Part shown: one piece after another, positions 35,015-55,234 of the stretch
Layout of the letters: the number at the start of each line of letters is the position of its first letter
Position numbering within the stretch: position 1 is the stretch's first letter
Assembly: GCA_964500675.1 (NCBI GenBank)
Contig: CAZCNY010000007.1
Coordinates: 152,456-216,455, forward strand
Direction: 5' to 3'
DNA length: 64,000 nucleotides
Source: an uncultured Verrucomicrobiaceae bacterium
Lineage (GTDB): Bacteria > Pseudomonadota > Gammaproteobacteria > Pseudomonadales > CAMLJR01
The notes under the pieces: generated by a model
Seen by the model: the letters and a program-made list of their open reading frames with translations, nothing else
Told to the model about the DNA's origin: nothing
Database searches by the model: none
Program-made: the position numbers and the translations under genes

Positions 35015-35099
35015 GCCCAGGTGGTGAAATTGGTATACACGCTACCTTGAGGTGGTAGTGGCGCAAGCCGTGCTGGTTCGAGTCCAGTCCTGGGCACCA
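35015..35099 (+). tRNA. tRNA-Leu (anticodon GAG)
   Basis: GCCCAGG acceptor stem, CTACC-TTGAGGT-GGTAG anticodon arm, long variable arm, GGTTCGAGTCC, encoded CCA; usual position after secG. Confidence 0.97.
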
Positions 35100-45224: not shown

Positions 45225-45337
45225 CCACTCAGCATTGTGCAAATATATCGCATTGGCTTTTTCCTGCGCCCGACTCGGGTAATAATTAGCAGCCCTCTAA
45301 TCGGCACCCTTTCTCCTAACATATTTCAGGATTGCGC

Positions 45338-48300
45338 ATGTGGATTGTTCGTGTCGCATTGCAGCGGCCCTACACGTTTATCGTTCTTGCGTTGCTGTTG
45401 CTGATCCTGGGGCCGCTGACGATCCTGCGCACGCCCACCGATATTTTCCCGAATATCGATATTCCCGTGATCACCGTGATCTGGAACTACAACGGTCTGC
45501 CCGCGGAAGAAATGGCGAGCCGTATCACGGTCAATTTCGAGCGCGTCGTCACCATCACCGTCAACGATATCGAACACATCGAATCGCAATCGCTCGGCGG
45601 CATCGCCGTGATCAAAATCTTCTTTCACCCGCATACCAAAATCGATTTGGCGATGAGCCAGGTTACCGCAGTGTCGCAGACCGTGCTGCGCGGTTATCCG
45701 CCCGGCACGCAGCCGCCGTTGATCATGAGTTACAACGCGTCGAGCGTGCCGATCATGCAACTGGCGTTGTCGAGCGCGAAACTCACGGAGGCGCAAATAT
45801 TCGATTTCGGCAACGTATTCATGCGCTCACAGCTCGCGACCGTGCAAGGCGCTTCGATTCCTTATCCGTACGGCGGCAAGCAGCGCAATATTCTCGTCGA
45901 TCTCAATCCGCGCGCGTTGCAGGCGCATGGATTGTCGGCGCAGGATGTGACGAATGCGATCGGTGCGCAGAACTTAATTCTGCCTTCGGGCACCGAAAAA
46001 ATTGGCGAATACGAATACAACATTCGCCTCAACGGCAGTCCGCTCAGCGTTGCAGCACTCAACGATCTGCCGATTAAAACGCTCAACGGCGCGACGATTT
46101 ATATCCGCGATGTTGCGCACGTGCGCGACGGTTTCGTGCCGCAGGTGAATATTGTGCGCGTCGACGGTCAGCGCGCCGCGCTGATGACGATTCAAAAAAC
46201 CGGCAACGCCTCGACACTCGATATCATCGATCGCATCAAAGCGTTGCTGCCGCAAATCAGAGACAGCGCGCCGGCCGATCTGAGCATTCGTCCACTGGCC
46301 GATCAATCGCTGTTCGTGCGCTCGTCGATCGCGGGCGTCATTCGCGAAGGCGTTATCGCCGCGGCGTTGACGGCACTGATGATACTGCTATTTCTCGGCA
46401 GCTGGCGCAGCACGCTGATCATCGCCATTTCGATTCCGTTGTCGGTGCTGGCTTCGATCATCACCTTGTCGGCGCTCGGCGAAACGATCAATATCATGAC
46501 ACTCGGCGGGCTCGCGCTCGCGGTGGGAATTCTCGTCGACGATGCCACAGTGGCGATCGAAAATATCAACTGGCATCTGGAGCAGGGCAAAGCGGTTGAA
46601 CTCGCGATACTCGACGGCGCGCAGCAGATCGCCGTGCCGGCGCTGGTGTCGACGCTGTGTATCTGCATCGTGTTCGTGCCGATGTTTTTCCTCGACGGCG
46701 TATCGCGTTATTTATTCGTGCCGCTCGCCGAAGCGGTGGTGTTCGCGATGCTCGCTTCCTACGTTTTATCGCGCACGCTGGTGCCGACACTCGCGAAATA
46801 TTTGTTGAAGCCGCACACCGGAGAGCACACTGCGCCGCTGCAAAAGCGCAATGCGTTGCAGCATTTTCAGCGCCATTTCGAGGCGCGTTTTGAAGCCGTG
46901 CGCTGCGCCTATCGCAGCTGGCTCGAACTGGTATTGCATCACCCGCGCGTATTTATCGGCGGATTTCTCGCGCTCATCATTATTTCGCTGCTGGTGCTGA
47001 CGCCGTGGCTGGGCAGCGACTTTTTTCCCGATGTGGATACCGGTCAAATCAAATTGCATCTGCGCGCGCACACCGGCACTCGCGTCGAAGAGACCGCGCG
47101 CATCGCGTACGATGTCGAGCAAGCGGTGCGCGAAGTGATTCCCGCGCATGAACTCGGCACCGTCGTGCAAAATGTCGGTTTGCCCGTCAGCGGCATCAAT
47201 TTGTCCTACACCAATTCGGCGCCGATCGGTCCCGCAGATGCCGATATCATGATTTCGTTAAAGCCGGGCCACGCGCCGACGGCCGATTACATTCGCACAT
47301 TGCGCCGGCGTTTACCCGAGCAATTTCCTGGCGTCACGTTTGCGTTTTTACCGGCCGATATCGTTTCGCAAATTTTGAATTTCGGTTTGCCGGCGCCGAT
47401 CGACGTTCAGGTTGTCGGCTATAACGCCAGCGCTAATCGCGCGCTGGCGCGGCGGATGCTGGAACAGTTTCGCCACATTCCGGGTATCGCCGATCTGCGT
47501 ATTCAGCAGACCTACGATTTGCCCGAGCTGCATGTCGATGTCGATCGCACGCGCGCGCAGCAGGCCGGTTTGACGCAGCGCGATGTTGCGACCGATATGC
47601 TGATTTCGCTGAGTGGCAGTTTTCAAACGCAGCCTGCATTTTGGCTGAACCCCAAAAACGGTGTGAGCTACACCATCAGCACGCAAATGCCGCAATACGA
47701 TCTCGGTTCGCTCGATGCGCTGCGCAATCTGCCCGTGACGAGCGCCGATGGCAATAAGCCGCCGCAAATTCTCGGCGGTCTCGCGACATTTTCGCGCGGC
47801 AGTGCGGCGGGTCTGGTATCGCATTACAACGCGCAGCCGGTGATCGATATTTTTGCCGCCGTGGAGGATCGCGATCTCGCCGCCGTTGCCAAAGAAGTGA
47901 ATAAAATTGTCGCGGAGCAGTCGCAGCATTTACCGAAAGGAACGCAATTGATCGCGCGCGGCCAGATGCAAACGATGCAGACATCGTTCAAAGGGCTTTA
48001 TCTCGGTTTGGCATTTGCGATCGTGCTGGTGTATTTGCTGATCGTGGTGAATTTTCAGTCGTGGCTCGATCCATTCATTATCATCACGGCGTTGCCCGCC
48101 GCGATCGCGGGCATTGTGTGGATTTTATTTTTAACGCATACCACGCTGAGCGTGCCGGCTTTGACCGGAGCGATCATGTGCATGGGCGTGGCCACAGCTA
48201 ACAGTATTCTCGTGGTGAGTTTCGCGCGCGAGCGGTTTCGCGAAACCGGCGATGCGGCGCGCGCTGCGGTCGAAGCGGGTTACACGCGCTTTCGTCCGGT

Positions 48301-48502
48301 GTTGATGACGGCATTGGCGATGATCATCGGCATGGTGCCGATGGCGCTCGGGCTCGGCGATGGCGGCGAGCAGAACGCGCCACTCGGCCGTGCGGTGATC
48401 GGTGGGTTATTGAGCGCAACGATCGCCACATTATTTTTTGTACCGGTGGTATTTCGCATCCTCTACCAGCGCCGGCGCGTGCCGACGGAGGCGCAACAAT
48501 GA
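45338..48502 (+). CDS. RND efflux transporter permease
   Basis: DIFPNIDIPVI, GILVDDATVAIENI (proton-relay DD), TRFRPVLMT. Confidence 0.96.
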   Translation: MWIVRVALQRPYTFIVLALLLLILGPLTILRTPTDIFPNIDIPVITVIWNYNGLPAEEMASRITVNFERVVTITVNDIEHIESQSLGGIAVIKIFFHPHTKIDLAMSQVTAVSQTVLRGYPPGTQPPLIMSYNASSVPIMQLALSSAKLTEAQIFDFGNVFMRSQLATVQGASIPYPYGGKQRNILVDLNPRALQAHGLSAQDVTNAIGAQNLILPSGTEKIGEYEYNIRLNGSPLSVAALNDLPIKTLNGATIYIRDVAHVRDGFVPQVNIVRVDGQRAALMTIQKTGNASTLDIIDRIKALLPQIRDSAPADLSIRPLADQSLFVRSSIAGVIREGVIAAALTALMILLFLGSWRSTLIIAISIPLSVLASIITLSALGETINIMTLGGLALAVGILVDDATVAIENINWHLEQGKAVELAILDGAQQIAVPALVSTLCICIVFVPMFFLDGVSRYLFVPLAEAVVFAMLASYVLSRTLVPTLAKYLLKPHTGEHTAPLQKRNALQHFQRHFEARFEAVRCAYRSWLELVLHHPRVFIGGFLALIIISLLVLTPWLGSDFFPDVDTGQIKLHLRAHTGTRVEETARIAYDVEQAVREVIPAHELGTVVQNVGLPVSGINLSYTNSAPIGPADADIMISLKPGHAPTADYIRTLRRRLPEQFPGVTFAFLPADIVSQILNFGLPAPIDVQVVGYNASANRALARRMLEQFRHIPGIADLRIQQTYDLPELHVDVDRTRAQQAGLTQRDVATDMLISLSGSFQTQPAFWLNPKNGVSYTISTQMPQYDLGSLDALRNLPVTSADGNKPPQILGGLATFSRGSAAGLVSHYNAQPVIDIFAAVEDRDLAAVAKEVNKIVAEQSQHLPKGTQLIARGQMQTMQTSFKGLYLGLAFAIVLVYLLIVVNFQSWLDPFIIITALPAAIAGIVWILFLTHTTLSVPALTGAIMCMGVATANSILVVSFARERFRETGDAARAAVEAGYTRFRPVLMTALAMIIGMVPMALGLGDGGEQNAPLGRAVIGGLLSATIATLFFVPVVFRILYQRRRVPTEAQQ

Positions 48503-49710
48503 CCGCATTCAACAACGATAACGGCTTCAAAAACGACGGTTCAAAAAATAGCGATGAATTTGCGCTGAGCAAAACCCAGCGGCGTTGGCTGTTCGCAATT
48601 GCCGTGATTGTCGTCGCGTTGGTTCTATTCGGAATCGCGACGCGAATACAGGCCGAAAAAACCTTGGAGCGACGCGTCGCCGCAACAGCCGCCGCGATCG
48701 TTGCCACGCAGAAACCGCGCGTGCAGTCGGGCGCTGAAACATTGACGCTACCGGGCGATGTGCAGGCTTACGCCGATGCGCCGATCTATGCGCGCACGAG
48801 CGGCTATTTGAAAAGCTGGAAGGTCGATATCGGCACGCACGTGAAGAAAGGTCAATTGCTCGCGGAAATCGACGCCCCCGAAGTCGATCAGGAACTGCTG
48901 CAGGCACAGGCGGATTTAGCGACAGCCGAGGCCAATGCAAAACTCGCGCGCAGCACGGCCGAGCGTTGGATTGAATTGCGCAAATCGGATGCGGTATCGC
49001 AGCAGGACGCCGATGAAAAAGTTGGCGATGCGGCGGCCAAGGCTGCGCTGCGCGAATCGGCGCATGCGAATGTCGAGCGCTTGCGCGAGCTGCAAGGCTT
49101 CAAACGCATTGTCGCGCCGTTTAGCGGTGTGATCACCGCGCGCAATATCGATATCGGTGCGCTGGTCAACGCGGCTTCTGGCGTCGAGCTGTTCCGTATT
49201 GCGGCGAGCGAAAAACTGCGCGTCTATGTTCAGGTGCCGCAGATTTATGCGCCAGCGATTAAACCCGGCCTTGCGGCGGAACTTGAATTCGCCGAGCGTC
49301 CGAATCAACATTTTCACGGAACCCTGGTGCGCAGCGCCGACGCCATCGACAACGCATCTCGCACGCTGCGCGCGGAAATCGAAGTCGATAACGCCGCCGC
49401 GAAATTGCTGCCCGGCGCTTATGCGCGCGTGCATTTGCAGCTGCCTGCGCCGGCGGCGTTGCGACTGCCGGTGAGCACATTGATTTTTCGCAGCGCCGGG
49501 TTACAGGTTGCCACGGTCGATGCGCAGCAACATATTCATTTGAAATCGATTCAGCTCGGCCGCGATTTTGGCAACGAAGTTGAAGTCATCGCGGGCTTGA
49601 ATAGCGAAGACAATGTCGTGCTTAATCCGCCCGATGCCGTCATCGACGGCGAGTCTGTGCGTGTTGTGCAACCGCAAGCGGAGAAAACCAGCAGCGGTAA
49701 TCAGGAGTGA
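48499..49710 (+). CDS. RND membrane fusion protein
   Basis: N-terminal TM, ARTSGYL..VKKGQLLAEID, IVAPFSGVIT; ATGA overlap with the permease. Confidence 0.95.
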   Translation: MTAFNNDNGFKNDGSKNSDEFALSKTQRRWLFAIAVIVVALVLFGIATRIQAEKTLERRVAATAAAIVATQKPRVQSGAETLTLPGDVQAYADAPIYARTSGYLKSWKVDIGTHVKKGQLLAEIDAPEVDQELLQAQADLATAEANAKLARSTAERWIELRKSDAVSQQDADEKVGDAAAKAALRESAHANVERLRELQGFKRIVAPFSGVITARNIDIGALVNAASGVELFRIAASEKLRVYVQVPQIYAPAIKPGLAAELEFAERPNQHFHGTLVRSADAIDNASRTLRAEIEVDNAAAKLLPGAYARVHLQLPAPAALRLPVSTLIFRSAGLQVATVDAQQHIHLKSIQLGRDFGNEVEVIAGLNSEDNVVLNPPDAVIDGESVRVVQPQAEKTSSGNQE

Positions 49711-50586: not shown

Positions 50587-50604
50587 TACCGAAAATTTTC
50601 GGTA
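50587..50604. promoter_or_regulatory. Perfect 18-bp palindrome, candidate operator for the lipoprotein/Cys-rich operon
   Basis: taccgaaaattttcggta in an AT-rich 250-bp intergenic region. Confidence 0.6.
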
Positions 50605-50713
50605 AATAGCGTAAATACATTGAAGTTCTGTTTTTGCGTCCATTATGTCTAACGCAATTGCGCTGGACCGCTTCTAAACTCGAATCTGTTGAATCAGCTT
50701 CGGGATGTTTCCT

Positions 50714-50902
50714 ATGAAAAAAATCAGCGTGCGTGCAGCGATGCTAGCCGGATCGGTGGTGGTTTGTTTATTTGCGGGTTGCGGCGGTGGAGGTGGTCAT
50801 AGCTCTTCGTCCTCATCGACAGCCAGCACCTCCATAAAAGGTGTGGCTACGCCGAGCAGCGTATCGGTGGTAACCGCACAAAACGCCAGTGCCGGCGGCT
50901 AA
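50714..50902 (+). CDS. Very small lipoprotein of unknown function
   Basis: MKKISVR, hydrophobic core, lipobox LFAGC, G5/S-rich linker, then SIKGVATPSSVSVVTAQNA. Confidence 0.75.
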   Translation: MKKISVRAAMLAGSVVVCLFAGCGGGGGHSSSSSSTASTSIKGVATPSSVSVVTAQNASAGG

Positions 50903-50931
50903 TGCCCAGACCGAATTCGGAGAAATTCATC

Positions 50932-53247
50932 ATGTCCGCAAACTCATTTCCAATTAAAAAAATAGTGCTTGCTGTTTCGGTCGCGCTGCCGTCGTTGTCG
51001 TTCGCCGCACCCCCAAGTACTTCTGCTTATGAAACCGATCCGCAAAATAGTTATGTTGAGGACGCCACCTCGAAAGGCATCGGCCAGGTGAATATGATTA
51101 CTTGCTTTATTGGCGCTATGGCACCCGATAAGTTGGTGAATCAAGGCAATTACATCGCTCTGGTCGATCAGGCGAAGTGCGATCCCAATTCGCGTTCGAG
51201 CACGAGTAATTCCAGCGGGTCCGGTACGCAGGCCGCTGATTATCAGACGGCGATCGTCAATTCCACGCGCGTCTCGAATAGCGATCCGATGATTGCGAAG
51301 GTGTGGGTCAACGATGTTAACGACGGTCATCAGTCGACAATTTACGTTCGCGCCAGTGCGGAACAAGCGCCATCGACCACGCTGCCGTATGGTATTTTCC
51401 GGCTGGATTTTTGTGGTCGAGCCGATGGCTTGAATTTACCCGCTTGCATGATGAATGGTTTTATCTCGGCGGATAGCACGGGGTTGAGTTATTACCAGAC
51501 AGAAAATGGCGGTCAGGGTGTTAGTACCACAGCGCTGCGGTTAAGTGCCACCACTACGGACAATGGCAGCGGCAGCCTCGATATCAATGAATCGCAAGGC
51601 AATCAAAGTGTGCACAGCGTGTTTGATTTTGCCTACAACCACGATTATTTCTTGCGCGGCGATCAATGCTTTAGTCGCGATGCCAACGAGGCCGATTTCT
51701 CGGTTTGGCGTTATGGTTTATACGATGCGGTGACTGGCGATCGCGTAACGGTTAATTCCGGTTTCCCGATTGAATATACGCCGAATGCGAGTACTCAAAC
51801 CTATCAAGGCTATCTCGGCTATTTCGGTTTGTCGCTCTCGCCTGATGCGATGACTGCGCTTGCAAATGAAGCGAATCCTGTCGTACAGAAAGTGGATTAC
51901 GGCAACGGTAACGGGGCGCCCACGCGCACAAACTACAGCGTGGTCATGGCGGCCGGTAAGTTGACCAAGTACACGAAAAAAACTCGTCATCTGAACGAAA
52001 TTGATCAAATTAAACTGAACGTTTTCGTCGGCGATGCGACCGGCTTTTTCAGTGGGGCAACATCGAACGCGCAATACGAAATCTATTGGGATAACACTGC
52101 CAACAGTTTCGTAGCCGATGGCATCGTCAATTGCGGTGGTAACAATGGGTGCAGCACCGATGCACTTAATACGACGCCGGCGACGCAGCCCATTCCACTG
52201 TCGTTTTTTAGCAATATGGGCGGCGTGCAAGGTTGGTCGCAATCGCTCGGTGGCGAAGTGTTTATCGATCTGCACGGCGTGAGCACGATCAGCGATTCCA
52301 GTGCAATTACCGTTGTGTATCGCACGCAAGATTTGGTGTATCCGAGCGATATGGCTGCGCTGGGACAGTTGTTTTGTTTGCGCGACTGCCCGACCGCTGC
52401 ATCGATCAGCAGTTATTTTGCACCGGGATCGAGCGATATGTCGCCGATGACGTTGGCAAATAACTGGAATCCCGTTGTGAGCGGACAGCAGGTGAGTTAC
52501 AGCTTGAATTCGACCACGGGGCTGTTGCTCGATGCGCAAAGTCAGCCGGTGGTGATGACCGATGCCAATGCCTTGCAGCAACATCCGCAGTATCAAAGTG
52601 GTGTGCGTAGCGGTCGGCTGTTTACATCGGCTGATTTAGCCGCAGTGGCCTGCGATAATCAACCGGGCAGTTTGTGCGATTACAAAGTGAATTCGCTCGA
52701 TGTTTACTATGTGTGGGAGACCGGCGCGAATAGCTGGAATCAGTTGGCGGTCGTGAAAGATAGCAACGGCAACTATCTGCACTTCGATGCGCCGTTGCAG
52801 TTGAATTACACGGTGCCCGCAACCGGCGCGCAATACGGCGCATACGCTGGCAAAGCCTTGGTGTTGCAGTACGGTGGTTTCGGCGATCTGTGGGGCTTGC
52901 CGGGCCATTGCGTATCGCATCTCACCAATCAAACCGTGGATTGCGGTGCGCAAAATGACGATGTGCGTTACGTGCCGGCGTTCGCCATCAAGAAAGGTGA
53001 GCAGGTTACCAGCGGTTCACACACTTATCTTGTGAAATGGCTTGAGCGCGAAGTTCGTTTCGCGCGCAAGGATATAACCGACGGTGTGTCGTGTGCGGGA
53101 CTCAGCACAACGAATATTAATGTCACCCTTCCCACGGCTGCGGATTTGAAAGATCCTTCATCTGCCGCGCAAGCCGATGTTTATATCGGCAAGAAGCCGG
53201 TAGTGACCGACTCGCCGCGCGTGATACAAGGCGACGTCAAATACTAG
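50932..53247 (+). CDS. Large secreted Cys-rich protein of unknown function (771 aa, 14 Cys)
   Basis: GGAG before ATG 50932; signal peptide MSANSFPIKKIVLAVSVALPSLSFA; S/T/N/G/Y-rich; Cys mostly in close pairs; no family I can name. Confidence 0.9.
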   Translation: MSANSFPIKKIVLAVSVALPSLSFAAPPSTSAYETDPQNSYVEDATSKGIGQVNMITCFIGAMAPDKLVNQGNYIALVDQAKCDPNSRSSTSNSSGSGTQAADYQTAIVNSTRVSNSDPMIAKVWVNDVNDGHQSTIYVRASAEQAPSTTLPYGIFRLDFCGRADGLNLPACMMNGFISADSTGLSYYQTENGGQGVSTTALRLSATTTDNGSGSLDINESQGNQSVHSVFDFAYNHDYFLRGDQCFSRDANEADFSVWRYGLYDAVTGDRVTVNSGFPIEYTPNASTQTYQGYLGYFGLSLSPDAMTALANEANPVVQKVDYGNGNGAPTRTNYSVVMAAGKLTKYTKKTRHLNEIDQIKLNVFVGDATGFFSGATSNAQYEIYWDNTANSFVADGIVNCGGNNGCSTDALNTTPATQPIPLSFFSNMGGVQGWSQSLGGEVFIDLHGVSTISDSSAITVVYRTQDLVYPSDMAALGQLFCLRDCPTAASISSYFAPGSSDMSPMTLANNWNPVVSGQQVSYSLNSTTGLLLDAQSQPVVMTDANALQQHPQYQSGVRSGRLFTSADLAAVACDNQPGSLCDYKVNSLDVYYVWETGANSWNQLAVVKDSNGNYLHFDAPLQLNYTVPATGAQYGAYAGKALVLQYGGFGDLWGLPGHCVSHLTNQTVDCGAQNDDVRYVPAFAIKKGEQVTSGSHTYLVKWLEREVRFARKDITDGVSCAGLSTTNINVTLPTAADLKDPSSAAQADVYIGKKPVVTDSPRVIQGDVKY

Positions 53248-53263
53248 GTTTACATTTATCTAC

Positions 53264-53285
53264 AGGGGCCTGCGGGCCCCTTTTT
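53264..53285. terminator. Intrinsic terminator ending the lipoprotein/Cys-rich operon
   Basis: aggggcc-tgcg-ggcccct-tttt. Confidence 0.8.
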
Positions 53286-53307
53286 CATTTCAAAAATTGT
53301 TGCAATC

Positions 53308-55152
53308 TCAAAAAGCAACCGAAATTCCGCCAAACACTTGCAGATCGCGCTGATTGTCCTGCGCAAAATGCTGTATCGCGCCGATATTGTAATTGGCCCC
53401 GCCCGGCAGCGCGCCGCTTAAACCGAGTTGCGCGGTGTAGCGCGTGCGTCCTGGCCCTTCGACAGGCATCGTGAACGGCAGCGCTTCGGGAATTGACAAT
53501 GCGCTCACGTCGACACTGTATTGGTTATCTTCAAAGTCGCGATCGACGGCGATACGCGCGTAGGGTTTGAATGTCTGCGCGCGATATTCGAATTGCCAGC
53601 CCGCGCTGCCGACGAGCGAGTGGCGCTGCTGCGCGCCGTAGCCGAGATCGACAATGCCCGCATTTTTTTCGTCGAAACCGTCGATACGGAGATCTTGCGC
53701 GAGCAAGCCGAGCACGGGCCCCGTGACAAAGCGATCGAGCGTGAATTCATAACCGCTTTCGAGCTGCGCGGACAGATCGCGGCCAGCAGTGTGCCCATCC
53801 GCCGTATAACTGGAAATGCCCAATGGCACGCGGCGATGCAGCGAATATTCGGTGTCGCCATAGGCGAGCGCGCCGCGCGCGAACCATGGATCGCTTTCCC
53901 AATTTCCATAAATGCTCAGCGTGATATCGCGCTGCGAATAATTACCGCGATTCTGCGCGTAATCGGCGCTGCCGTTAGCGATGCTGAGTGCGGCGCCGGC
54001 AACGATTTGCGAGTTGATTTGCGTGTCCATACCGAGCGCAAAGTGATAATCGCTGGCATCGGTGCCGGGATTGGCTTGAACATTATCGCGGTCGAGCGTC
54101 TGGTTTTGCACGGAAATCCATACATGGTGTCCGTTGTTTTGACGCGCATTAGAACCGGCGATTAATTGCGAGCGTAGCAAATCGTGCAACGCGCCGCGCG
54201 AGGCGATGGCGCTGTCGGCCAGCATTCCAACTTGCTGTGGCGCACTTAACACACTGAGTACGTAATCGCCGAGGATTTTATGCGTGCCCGTCGTCGGGTG
54301 AACGCCATCGGCGAACAGATAAGTTTGGTTGGCGCCGACAGCGTAGTCGCCCGTCGTGCATACCAGCGATGATGGCAAATTGCCGCAGGCTTTTCCCGTT
54401 GTATTTTCTATGCCGAATTTCGAAGCGTCGTCGATGATTTGATGCAGCAACCCGAACGTATCGATCGGGATGACGCGAATGCCCTGCGTCGCCAGCTGCG
54501 TGAATAATTCGTGATTGTAGGTTTGCACGAATTGCGTCGCCTGTGTCTGCGCCGCCGTGCCCGCGGTGATCGAACTCGGTGTGCTGCCGATATCCGGCAG
54601 GTTGAGCACGACGAGATAGCGCGCGCCGGCATTACGAAGACGGGCGATCTGAGCGGTCATATTGTCCGCGACTTGCGCCATAGGTAAAGCGTTATAAGCG
54701 GGGTCGCCATCCTGCAGCGCGAACACATCGTTGGCGCCGGCCCATAACGCATACAGTGCATGCGCATCCGCCCGCCCGCCCGTCGCTGTCAAATAAGTCG
54801 TTATCTGTTCCGAAACCGACGGTGCGGTTTGAATGAACGGCACCAGCGCATTGTTTGGATAGCCCGGCTCCGAGTTCACGCGCGCGCCGCCCGCCGCGTA
54901 GTCGGTGCCGCCCTGATTCAAGGGCGACGTTGGATGTCCGAGTGCAGCGGCGACGACTTCCGCCCACACCGAACCAGGATTCGTGGTGAATTTCCCCGCG
55001 ATTTGATAAACCCCTCCGAGCGGCGGTTGCCCCACGTACGTTCCGGTATCGGTGAGACTGTCGCCGAAGAAAATCGCGTTTGAATAATCCGCAGCGGAAG
55101 CTTGAACCGAACAAACAGCAGCGATGGTGGCGGCGAGTACGTGAGCGCGCAT
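53308..55152 (-). CDS. GDSL esterase autotransporter (EstA/ApeE-like)
   Basis: Signal peptide, FGDSLTD, WAGAND, DGVHP, C-terminal beta-barrel ending in F. Confidence 0.93.
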   Translation of the reverse strand: MRAHVLAATIAAVCSVQASAADYSNAIFFGDSLTDTGTYVGQPPLGGVYQIAGKFTTNPGSVWAEVVAAALGHPTSPLNQGGTDYAAGGARVNSEPGYPNNALVPFIQTAPSVSEQITTYLTATGGRADAHALYALWAGANDVFALQDGDPAYNALPMAQVADNMTAQIARLRNAGARYLVVLNLPDIGSTPSSITAGTAAQTQATQFVQTYNHELFTQLATQGIRVIPIDTFGLLHQIIDDASKFGIENTTGKACGNLPSSLVCTTGDYAVGANQTYLFADGVHPTTGTHKILGDYVLSVLSAPQQVGMLADSAIASRGALHDLLRSQLIAGSNARQNNGHHVWISVQNQTLDRDNVQANPGTDASDYHFALGMDTQINSQIVAGAALSIANGSADYAQNRGNYSQRDITLSIYGNWESDPWFARGALAYGDTEYSLHRRVPLGISSYTADGHTAGRDLSAQLESGYEFTLDRFVTGPVLGLLAQDLRIDGFDEKNAGIVDLGYGAQQRHSLVGSAGWQFEYRAQTFKPYARIAVDRDFEDNQYSVDVSALSIPEALPFTMPVEGPGRTRYTAQLGLSGALPGGANYNIGAIQHFAQDNQRDLQVFGGISVAF

Positions 55153-55234
55153 CGTGTTTTCCTCCAAATGAAACTTTATTGTTAATGTTGTGTTATTGCT
55201 TAGTATGAGCCAATGCGGTACGTGAAGGCGAGAG

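Follow-up and report, generated by a model that had tools for sequence, protein, structure and literature searches.

Why should a gene for a lipoprotein of only 62 amino acids (aa) stand directly in front of a gene for a large secreted protein? The question is raised by a two-gene unit on contig CAZCNY010000007.1 (assembly GCA_964500675.1) of an uncultured Verrucomicrobiaceae bacterium, of which we analyzed a stretch of 64,000 nucleotides (nt), hereafter the window. The unit consists of the 62-aa lipoprotein gene (50714-50902) and the gene of a 771-aa secreted protein (50932-53247), and it is closed by a terminator. The initial annotation of this DNA proposed that the small protein donates a beta-strand to the large one and so anchors or nucleates it at the outer membrane. 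After comparison with related loci we consider it likely that the two genes together specify a single functional protein, made as a lipid-anchored docking peptide and a separate body that reassemble after export. The micro-lipoprotein would then be a fragment of its own partner, cut just after a conserved peptide. The two genes and their parts are the following:

50714-50902, plus strand: micro-lipoprotein gene encoding a 62-aa precursor, with a signal peptide at residues 1-22, the lipobox LFAG/C (the slash marks the predicted cleavage site here and below) and the Cys23 codon at 50780-50782.
50783-50830, plus strand: disordered Gly/Ser-rich tether GGGGGHSSSSSSTAST, whose length and sequence differ between species.
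50831-50887, plus strand: C-terminal docking peptide SIKGVATPSSVSVVTAQNA, conserved across 72 micro-lipoproteins.
50932-53247, plus strand: gene of the large secreted protein, 771 aa, beta-rich, with 14 Cys, from an uncharacterized family.
50932-51006, plus strand: Sec signal peptide (signal peptidase (SPase) I type) MSANSFPIKKIVLAVSVALPSLSFA/A, from alignment with homologues.

The small protein is made as the precursor MKKISVRAAMLAGSVVVCLFAG/CGGGGGHSSSSSSTASTSIKGVATPSSVSVVTAQNASAGG, with a mature part of 40 aa. Its start was placed at the MKK at 50714, which alignment with relatives favours over the ATG at 50705, and its N-terminus has the form of a lipoprotein signal (MKK...VVVCLFAG/C, lipobox pattern [LVI][ASTVI][GAS]C). 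The minimal lipoprotein described in the initial annotation, with a mature part made of a Gly/Ser tether and one further segment, is thus present. That further segment is also the only part conserved beyond the lipobox Cys when 72 micro-lipoproteins from related loci are compared. Their mature parts measure 29-61 residues (median 42) and end in a conserved 20-mer with the consensus [TAP][VI]xG[VIL]xTPxSV[SA]VVTAxNAx, in which G(-7) is found in 68/72, P(-3) in 71/72, V(+2) in 70/72, V(+3) in 72/72, T(+4) in 69/72 and N(+7) in 70/72 sequences. In 57 of the 72 the protein ends exactly five residues past VVT. The linker between the Cys and the 20-mer is variable, 10-40 aa long and composed mainly of G (26%), S (23%), P (15%), A (13%) and T (10%).

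Of the 71 upstream open reading frames (ORFs) that were detected by script, 69 carry a lipobox; the other two are L003, which has VLHG/C, and L011, which is frameshifted in a metagenome-assembled genome (MAG). One more upstream ORF (L050) was read by hand and carries a lipobox. The residue that follows the lipobox Cys (+2) is Gly in 56 cases, including the window protein, Ser in 8, Asp in 4 and Lys in 3. The micro-lipoproteins of a Vibrio clade (L071-L073 and L076, from Vibrio penaeicida, V. nigripulchritudo and Vibrio sp.) start with CDSSS, whereas most others start with CGGG, and in this clade the small ORF runs 14-35 nt into the large gene. Under the Lol sorting rules Asp at +2 would suggest retention in the inner membrane or a route like that of PulA and SslE, and the Asp of the Vibrio clade, against Gly in most other members, suggests that its micro-lipoproteins are sorted differently.

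Small genes of this kind are easily missed. Automatic gene callers skipped the 62-codon gene in the organism's own contigs (L079 and L080), leaving a seemingly empty gap of 480 nt, and in several cultured strains NCBI labels the small gene as a hypothetical protein. Culturable carriers of the unit include Ampullimonas aquatilis LMG 28208, Caldimonas mangrovi, V. nigripulchritudo and V. mediterranei. Searches of Pfam, NCBIfam and the PDB sequences with the small protein returned only sub-threshold matches to signal peptides and linkers (SslE, fusolisin and others).

To what extent the two genes belong together was judged from a contig scan of genomes that gave 78 loci, 75 of which had readable upstream DNA and were counted (one locus, L006, has no upstream sequence). 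In 73 of the 75 a micro-lipoprotein ORF immediately precedes the large gene, and the other two, from Simiduia (L074) and Oleiphilus (L078), have a single fused gene. The co-occurrence on which the proposal of the initial annotation depends is therefore complete among the split loci with upstream sequence (73/73), and it extends to three further clades described below. Over the 73 loci the end of the small ORF ranges from 35 nt inside the large gene to 79 nt before it. No other neighbour is conserved: in an all-against-all comparison of the ORFs of the 78 loci no gene was shared by more than 12 of them, a level that reflects lineage synteny, and the precomputed Pfam assignments of the neighbours in six contexts gave no conserved partner gene. 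Vibrio, Simiduia and a betaproteobacterium have the unit in surroundings that bear no relation to each other. In the absence of any other conserved neighbour the unit is therefore a self-contained two-gene module, as its first description as a self-contained operon had it. Frameshift-like interruptions were seen in the large gene of L005 and the small gene of L011, both on MAG contigs; these are probably assembly errors and not real pseudogenes.

The existence of fused homologues, mentioned in the initial annotation, is borne out by the Simiduia and Oleiphilus loci and by about 190 collected members. In Simiduia aestuariiviva and Oleiphilus one gene of 830-843 codons encodes a lipobox, a linker, the peptide LVLPETLQVVSAN or YELPEQLEIVQSG, a spacer of about 25 residues and the body. 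The same arrangement recurs in many database members, with clade-specific peptides, for example ALTVADKVSVVDAK and LSLPSTVSVVTAQNE. Among 439 full-length members, a sample biased by the way it was collected, 212 are of the split type, and in about 190 lipobox and peptide belong to the same chain as the body. The alignment of the fused Sedimenticola protein P0181 with the window protein runs over the full length of both (26% identity, expectation value (E) 9e-51) and sets the spacer of P0181 opposite the signal peptide of the window protein. Fused forms have a non-hydrophobic spacer between peptide and body, and in only 7% of them is the 30-residue stretch preceding the body hydrophobic, versus 96% of split bodies. 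The split-type bodies (n=228) have a hydrophobic h-region in 96%, an N-terminal K or R in 98% and an AxA-like site in 97% of cases. Given the fused homologues and the signal peptide on split bodies, we therefore take the window genes to be the two halves of one lipoprotein. The presence of the peptide at the equivalent place in the fused homologues argues that it is an integral, body-binding part, and therefore that the micro-lipoprotein acts as a lipid anchor in trans.

The split state is found in more than one clade. Split proteins occupy at least four separate groups in a neighbour-joining tree of 112 bodies, nested among fused proteins, which are spread throughout the tree. Three split clades outside the clade of the window each have an upstream micro-lipoprotein with the peptide type of their own clade, the peptides ending in LILPSSLEVVTNENAK in Cellvibrio, LTLPSKLEVVTNEN in Agaribacterium and GLSVANKVSVVEAKTN in the P0252 group. 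The cut always lies a few residues past the VV core, where the disordered spacer begins. As the split recurs in many loci and the bodies have complete signal peptides, it is real and no frameshift, in agreement with what the second signal peptide had suggested to the initial annotation.

The constant adjacency of the two genes, conservation confined to lipobox and peptide, the abundance of fused forms, the recurrence of the split and a signal peptide that precedes the body only in split forms are the observations on which the following scheme is built. The ancestral form would have been one lipoprotein: an SPase II signal peptide with the lipobox Cys, then a disordered tether of Gly, Ser and Pro that leads to the docking peptide (about 20 residues) and finally, behind a short spacer without hydrophobic character, a body of some 740 residues, predicted to be beta-rich and disulfide-bonded; proteins of this apparently ancestral type remain common in other lineages. 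In the clade of the window the gene would have been cut just past the docking peptide, the upstream piece becoming the micro-lipoprotein and the downstream piece gaining a Sec signal peptide. Both pieces would be produced from one transcript and exported separately. The small piece would be lipidated by Lgt, LspA and Lnt, and the body would fold and form its disulfides in the oxidizing periplasm. The docking peptide would then bind the body non-covalently at the site that fused proteins use in cis, so that the body is held to a membrane by a flexible leash of 10-40 residues.

The large protein has the traits listed in the initial annotation, namely its own Shine-Dalgarno sequence, a signal peptide, the paired cysteines of CGGNNGC, CLRDC, CDNQPGSLC and CVSHLTNQTVDC, and the tail GKKPVVTDSPRVIQGDVKY. 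The signal peptide is probably cleaved near A25/A26. Thirteen of the 14 Cys are kept in at least 25 of 26 homologues, and together the 14 would form about seven disulfides. A first homology search returned at least 705 homologues of 750-775 aa, all labelled hypothetical and none with a precomputed Pfam domain. A profile search of a library of 50%-identity representatives yielded 1199 clusters with E <=1e-3, of which 581 reach E <=1e-30; the family covers Proteobacteria, Planctomycetota and Nitrospirota. Searches with divergent seeds widened it to marine Gammaproteobacteria (Vibrio, Enterovibrio, Simiduia, Hahella, Cellvibrio, Endozoicomonas), Planctomycetota, Nitrospirota and Desulfobacterota, again with no annotated member and, among the proteins listed, no precomputed Pfam domain, and a tblastn search of plasmids gave no match. 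The large protein itself has no match in Pfam-A, in NCBIfam or, by phmmer, among the PDB sequences. The best hit of a 112-member profile against the PDB sequences (gasdermin, E 0.087) was taken as noise, and seven diverse family members, including P0144 of Enterovibrio sp. ZSDZ35, had no match in NCBIfam. UniRef names P0144 'MSHA biogenesis protein MshQ'; this identity was rejected, as the protein matches no NCBIfam family and has no Pfam support, and the label appears to be an annotation carry-over. The family thus remains without a match to any characterized family in Pfam, NCBIfam, PDB sequences or folds, as initially stated.

Conservation across the family falls mostly on Gly, Pro, Cys and aromatic residues, without a conserved cluster of acids or His, and the charged near-invariants are limited to R172, R345, K765 and E770 (P0181 numbering). 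In some members (P0257, P0268 and P0299, of 980-1040 aa; P0249 and P0286, of about 1460-1490 aa) the body is preceded by immunoglobulin (Ig)-like modules or by several hundred unannotated residues, as if it stood on a longer stalk. The only modules recognized in these extensions are generic Ig-like ones, Flg_new_2 (a divergent InlB B-repeat) and BACON, which give no functional clue.

How the peptide might meet the body was approached with an AlphaFold2 model of the fused protein P0181, built from 112 sequences (predicted local distance difference test (pLDDT) 86.2, predicted template modelling score 0.84). In the model a small N-terminal module that contains helix comes first, then a disordered acidic/Gly/Ser loop, followed by about 11 long up-and-down strands and by further beta-rich and mixed domains. 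Residues 41-50, within the peptide, have a mean pLDDT of 90, and the flanks 1-29 and 58-71 are below 50. In a predicted structure, a confident peptide between disordered linkers is the pattern expected if the peptide packs against the body. Foldseek searches with this model gave no credible match in the PDB (best E 5e-3, template modelling (TM) score 0.07) or in BFVD (TM <=0.14), and those with the model of the window protein gave none either. Weak matches to propeller, avidin and TbpB folds were set aside, their TM scores being <0.4 even on the target side. As modelled, the whole-chain architecture appears to have no solved relative.

Several points weigh against the reading of the two genes as a split lipoprotein. 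In the P0181 model the peptide is given neither strand nor bridge by DSSP; the donated beta-strand of the initial annotation is accordingly not supported, and we speak of a docking peptide for this reason. P0181 is, moreover, only 26% identical to the window protein, whose own model (from 26 sequences) reaches a pLDDT of 70, with poor N- and C-terminal regions. Mean-field direct-coupling analysis of 258 peptide-body pairs (effective number of sequences about 206), which is underpowered and confounded by phylogeny, gave scattered top pairs (Y297/F298, D159, G658, Y638) and no coherent docking site. The neighbour-joining tree is crude, which makes the number of fissions uncertain, and some of the events could be fusions. 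The variable +2 residue may mean that the target membrane differs between clades. Finally, the role of the body is a guess, made with low confidence: because its conserved residues are mostly Gly, Pro, Cys and aromatics, binding or scaffolding is favoured over catalysis, and the body might serve the cell envelope as a binding or scaffold protein without catalytic activity.

Other explanations of the pairing fare less well. One follows the adhesin, lattice or polymer of the initial annotation: the peptide would act in trans between subunits, and the body would form lipid-nucleated oligomers, a lattice or a fibre at the cell surface. The disordered spacer of 25-45 residues in fused proteins permits docking in cis or in trans, and docking in trans must work, as the split form shows; the Ig-like stalk modules (Flg_new_2, BACON) of some members are, in addition, typical of surface proteins. 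A micro-lipoprotein, however, offers one peptide without a body and could thus cap a chain but not extend it. Usher, chaperone, sortase and Slam genes are absent from the vicinity in the contexts read, the peptide is no strand by DSSP, and there is no similarity in fold to pilins or S-layer proteins. We regard this explanation as unlikely.

A second possibility, to which we give equally little credence, is that the small ORF is an independent lipoprotein, or an upstream ORF that serves translational coupling or regulation, and that the large protein is free in the periplasm or secreted. Coupling would be compatible with the tight spacing or overlap of the ORFs in many loci (-35 to +79 nt). It does not explain why the lipobox and the 20-residue peptide are strongly conserved at the protein level across bodies that are only 26% identical, nor why the same peptide recurs inside mature fused proteins, follows the clade of the body in its type and is modelled with high pLDDT in the fused protein.

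Far less probable still is an outer-membrane beta-barrel with the micro-lipoprotein as its plug or assembly partner, in the style of LptD-LptE. The length of 771 aa, the cysteines and the lipoprotein partner do recall LptD-LptE, the C-terminus of the window clade (...VIQGDVKY) resembles the beta-signal of outer-membrane proteins, and the 11 long strands run up and down. Yet Pfam and NCBIfam show no match to LptD or to outer-membrane proteins, Foldseek gives TM scores of <=0.16 to the barrels of LptD, BamA, TamA, FhaC and TonB-dependent receptors, and the terminal aromatic residue is not conserved in other clades (Simiduia ends in ...VIDGEVQ). The model contains helices, mixed domains and about seven disulfides, and the fused members are ordinary N-terminally lipidated proteins.

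The least credible explanation, a pseudogene or an artefactual frameshift in a single lipoprotein gene, has in its favour that the ORFs lie in different frames and overlap at TAATG and that fused homologues exist, but it is contradicted by 73 independent loci and three clades that are split at the same structural point with differing spacings and frames, by the complete signal peptides and own Shine-Dalgarno sequences of the bodies, by purifying selection on both parts and by the identical sequence obtained in two independent runs.

Lipoproteins that tether a soluble partner are already known (NlpI-Prc, LpoB-PBP1B, LptE-LptD). What is new here is that the anchor is a bare peptide and a fragment of its own partner, and that the same cut is found in several separate clades. 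In NlpI-Prc, LbcA-CtpA and LpoB-PBP1B a lipoprotein adaptor tethers or controls a soluble protein of the periplasm; as in the split reading, a separate lipoprotein holds a separately exported protein, in the case of LpoB also by way of a long disordered linker. NlpI, LbcA and LpoB are, however, folded and independently evolved, and their genes are usually not adjacent to those of their partners, whereas the adaptor of the window is a tether with a 20-residue peptide, always adjacent to its partner and a fragment of it. LptD-LptE likewise joins a Cys-containing envelope protein of about 780 aa to an obligatory lipoprotein partner. It differs in sequence and fold, the window body is not a predicted barrel, and the partner is a peptide and not a folded plug; Pfam and NCBIfam gave no match to the OstA/LptD domain of the 26-strand LptD barrel or to the LptE domain, and Foldseek against LptDE structures gave TM 0.08-0.14 with probabilities of 0.02-0.03.

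In chaperone-usher and type V (FimA/Mfa) pili a short segment from another polypeptide completes or occupies a site in a beta-rich protein, as the docking peptide would, and type V pilins are likewise made as lipoproteins. In contrast to these, the window system has no chaperone, usher or pilin families, no processing protease as a partner and no polymerizing repeat in its body, and a strand is not supported by the model; searches for such systems gave no Pfam matches, no conserved neighbour genes and no match to a pilin fold. SpyTag/SpyCatcher and strand 11 of split GFP resemble the proposed pair in that a short terminal peptide and a body reassemble after separate synthesis. These are man-made, and SpyTag binds covalently, whereas the window pair is natural, occurs in several clades and has a peptide that would bear a lipid; the peptide piece has no Cys other than the lipidated one and shows no sign of a covalent bond. 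PulA and SslE, surface lipoproteins secreted by the type II system, share the lipobox and the long low-complexity linker, and their Asp at +2 is matched by the CDSSS of the Vibrio clade. Most members, including the window protein, have Gly at +2 instead, no link to type II secretion was seen, and the similarity of the small protein to the SslE N-terminus in NCBIfam (E 0.046, 11 bits versus a cutoff of 3000) is confined to signal peptide and linker. As for Slam-dependent, TbpB-like lipoproteins, the match to TbpB was poor (E 0.38, probability 0.05, TM 0.09) and no Slam-like (DUF560) neighbour was present in the contexts read.

The DNA around the two genes contains the signals of an operon and two candidate regulatory regions:

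50587-50604, no strand: perfect 18-bp palindrome TACCGAAAATTTTCGGTA, 110 nt upstream of the small gene.
50648-50689, plus strand: upstream blocks TCTAACGCAA (50648-50657) and TTCTAaACTCGAA.CTGT, conserved in an alignment of the three closest loci.
50920-50924, plus strand: Shine-Dalgarno sequence GGAGA of the large gene, 8 nt upstream of its ATG.
53264-53291, plus strand: intrinsic terminator with a 7-bp G+C stem, a 4-nt loop and a T-tract (hairpin 53264-53281, followed by TTTTTCATTTC).

The operon character rests on the Shine-Dalgarno sequence of the large gene, the spacing of 29 nt between the stop of the small gene and the ATG at 50932, and the terminator, whose hairpin and T-tract were located after the large gene where the initial annotation had placed an intrinsic terminator. 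The start of the large gene at the ATG at 50932, after GGAG, was fixed by alignment with the two nearest relatives, L086 and L087, whose large proteins are 87% and 85% identical to that of the window; both keep the GGAG. At 50900-50904 the TAA of the small gene overlaps, as TAATG, with an ATG at 50902 that opens a 781-aa version of the large ORF. This overlap is found in L086 and is absent from L087, which has TAG, a 40-nt spacer and GGAG-ATG; the longer version was rejected as it is not conserved there. The ATG at 50902 is probably not a functional start, and some coupled re-initiation could occur at it.

The palindrome noted in the initial annotation is exact over its 18 bp and is the sole match to TACCGAAAATTTTCGGTA in the window even when three mismatches are allowed (chance expectation 0.01). 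In L086 and L087 the palindromic form is missing, and of its sequence only the half CGAAAA remains. The palindrome might act as an operator specific to the species; as it is not conserved in the nearest relatives, nothing is concluded on a regulatory role, despite its uniqueness in the window. Unlike the palindrome, the second upstream block, TTCTAAACTCGAA at 50672-50684 followed by CTGT, is conserved in the three closest loci. From this conservation the blocks at 50648-50689 are likely promoter or 5'-untranslated-region elements of the operon, maybe an operator; a simple sigma-70 scan found no sigma-70 promoter-like site there.

Beyond the terminator, and sharing its region, a convergent gene (53308-55167, minus strand) encodes a GDSL lipase/esterase fused to an autotransporter beta-domain (EstA-like), with genes of the RsmE type (Methyltrans_RNA) and of a MiaB-like protein (radical SAM/TRAM) as its neighbours. 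On the other side, a permease gene of the resistance-nodulation-division type (45332-48502, plus strand) precedes the gene of a membrane-fusion protein (48499-49710, plus strand), with an overlap of 4 nt. The usual order, with the membrane-fusion protein first and the permease second, is inverted here, and the stretch from this pair to msrA holds no gene for an outer-membrane factor. The only Rfam match at gathering threshold in the window is a tRNA gene (35015-35096, plus strand).

Neither the family nor a lipoprotein divided between a peptide anchor and a separate body is described in Pfam, NCBIfam, the PDB or the full-text literature searched. Gram-negative proteins are known to attach to membranes by their own lipid, by a transmembrane segment, by a folded lipoprotein partner or by C-terminal sorting tags. 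If our reading is true, an anchor that brings the lipid in trans and consists of a bare peptide cut from the protein's own N-terminus would be added to these modes, and the peptide-body pair could serve as an orthogonal periplasmic tag-and-catcher module for envelope biology. The fused and split pairs constitute a natural experiment on periplasmic fragment complementation. Small as they are, at 50-70 codons, micro-lipoprotein genes can contribute essential parts to larger proteins and yet be overlooked, and the body family, with more than 1000 clusters in several phyla and neither a Pfam or NCBIfam model nor a solved structure, is a target for structural and functional work. More tentatively, and short of calling it probable, we propose that natural split-protein anchoring operates in several lineages, with a lipidated tag of about 20 residues binding a separately secreted body of about 740 residues, and that the fission is adaptive because it makes attachment adjustable. 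If this is true, splitting would be a means of tunable anchoring, through the ratio of anchor to body, release of the body or its hand-over between membranes, and the fission of these genes would be an adaptive design and not a neutral accident.

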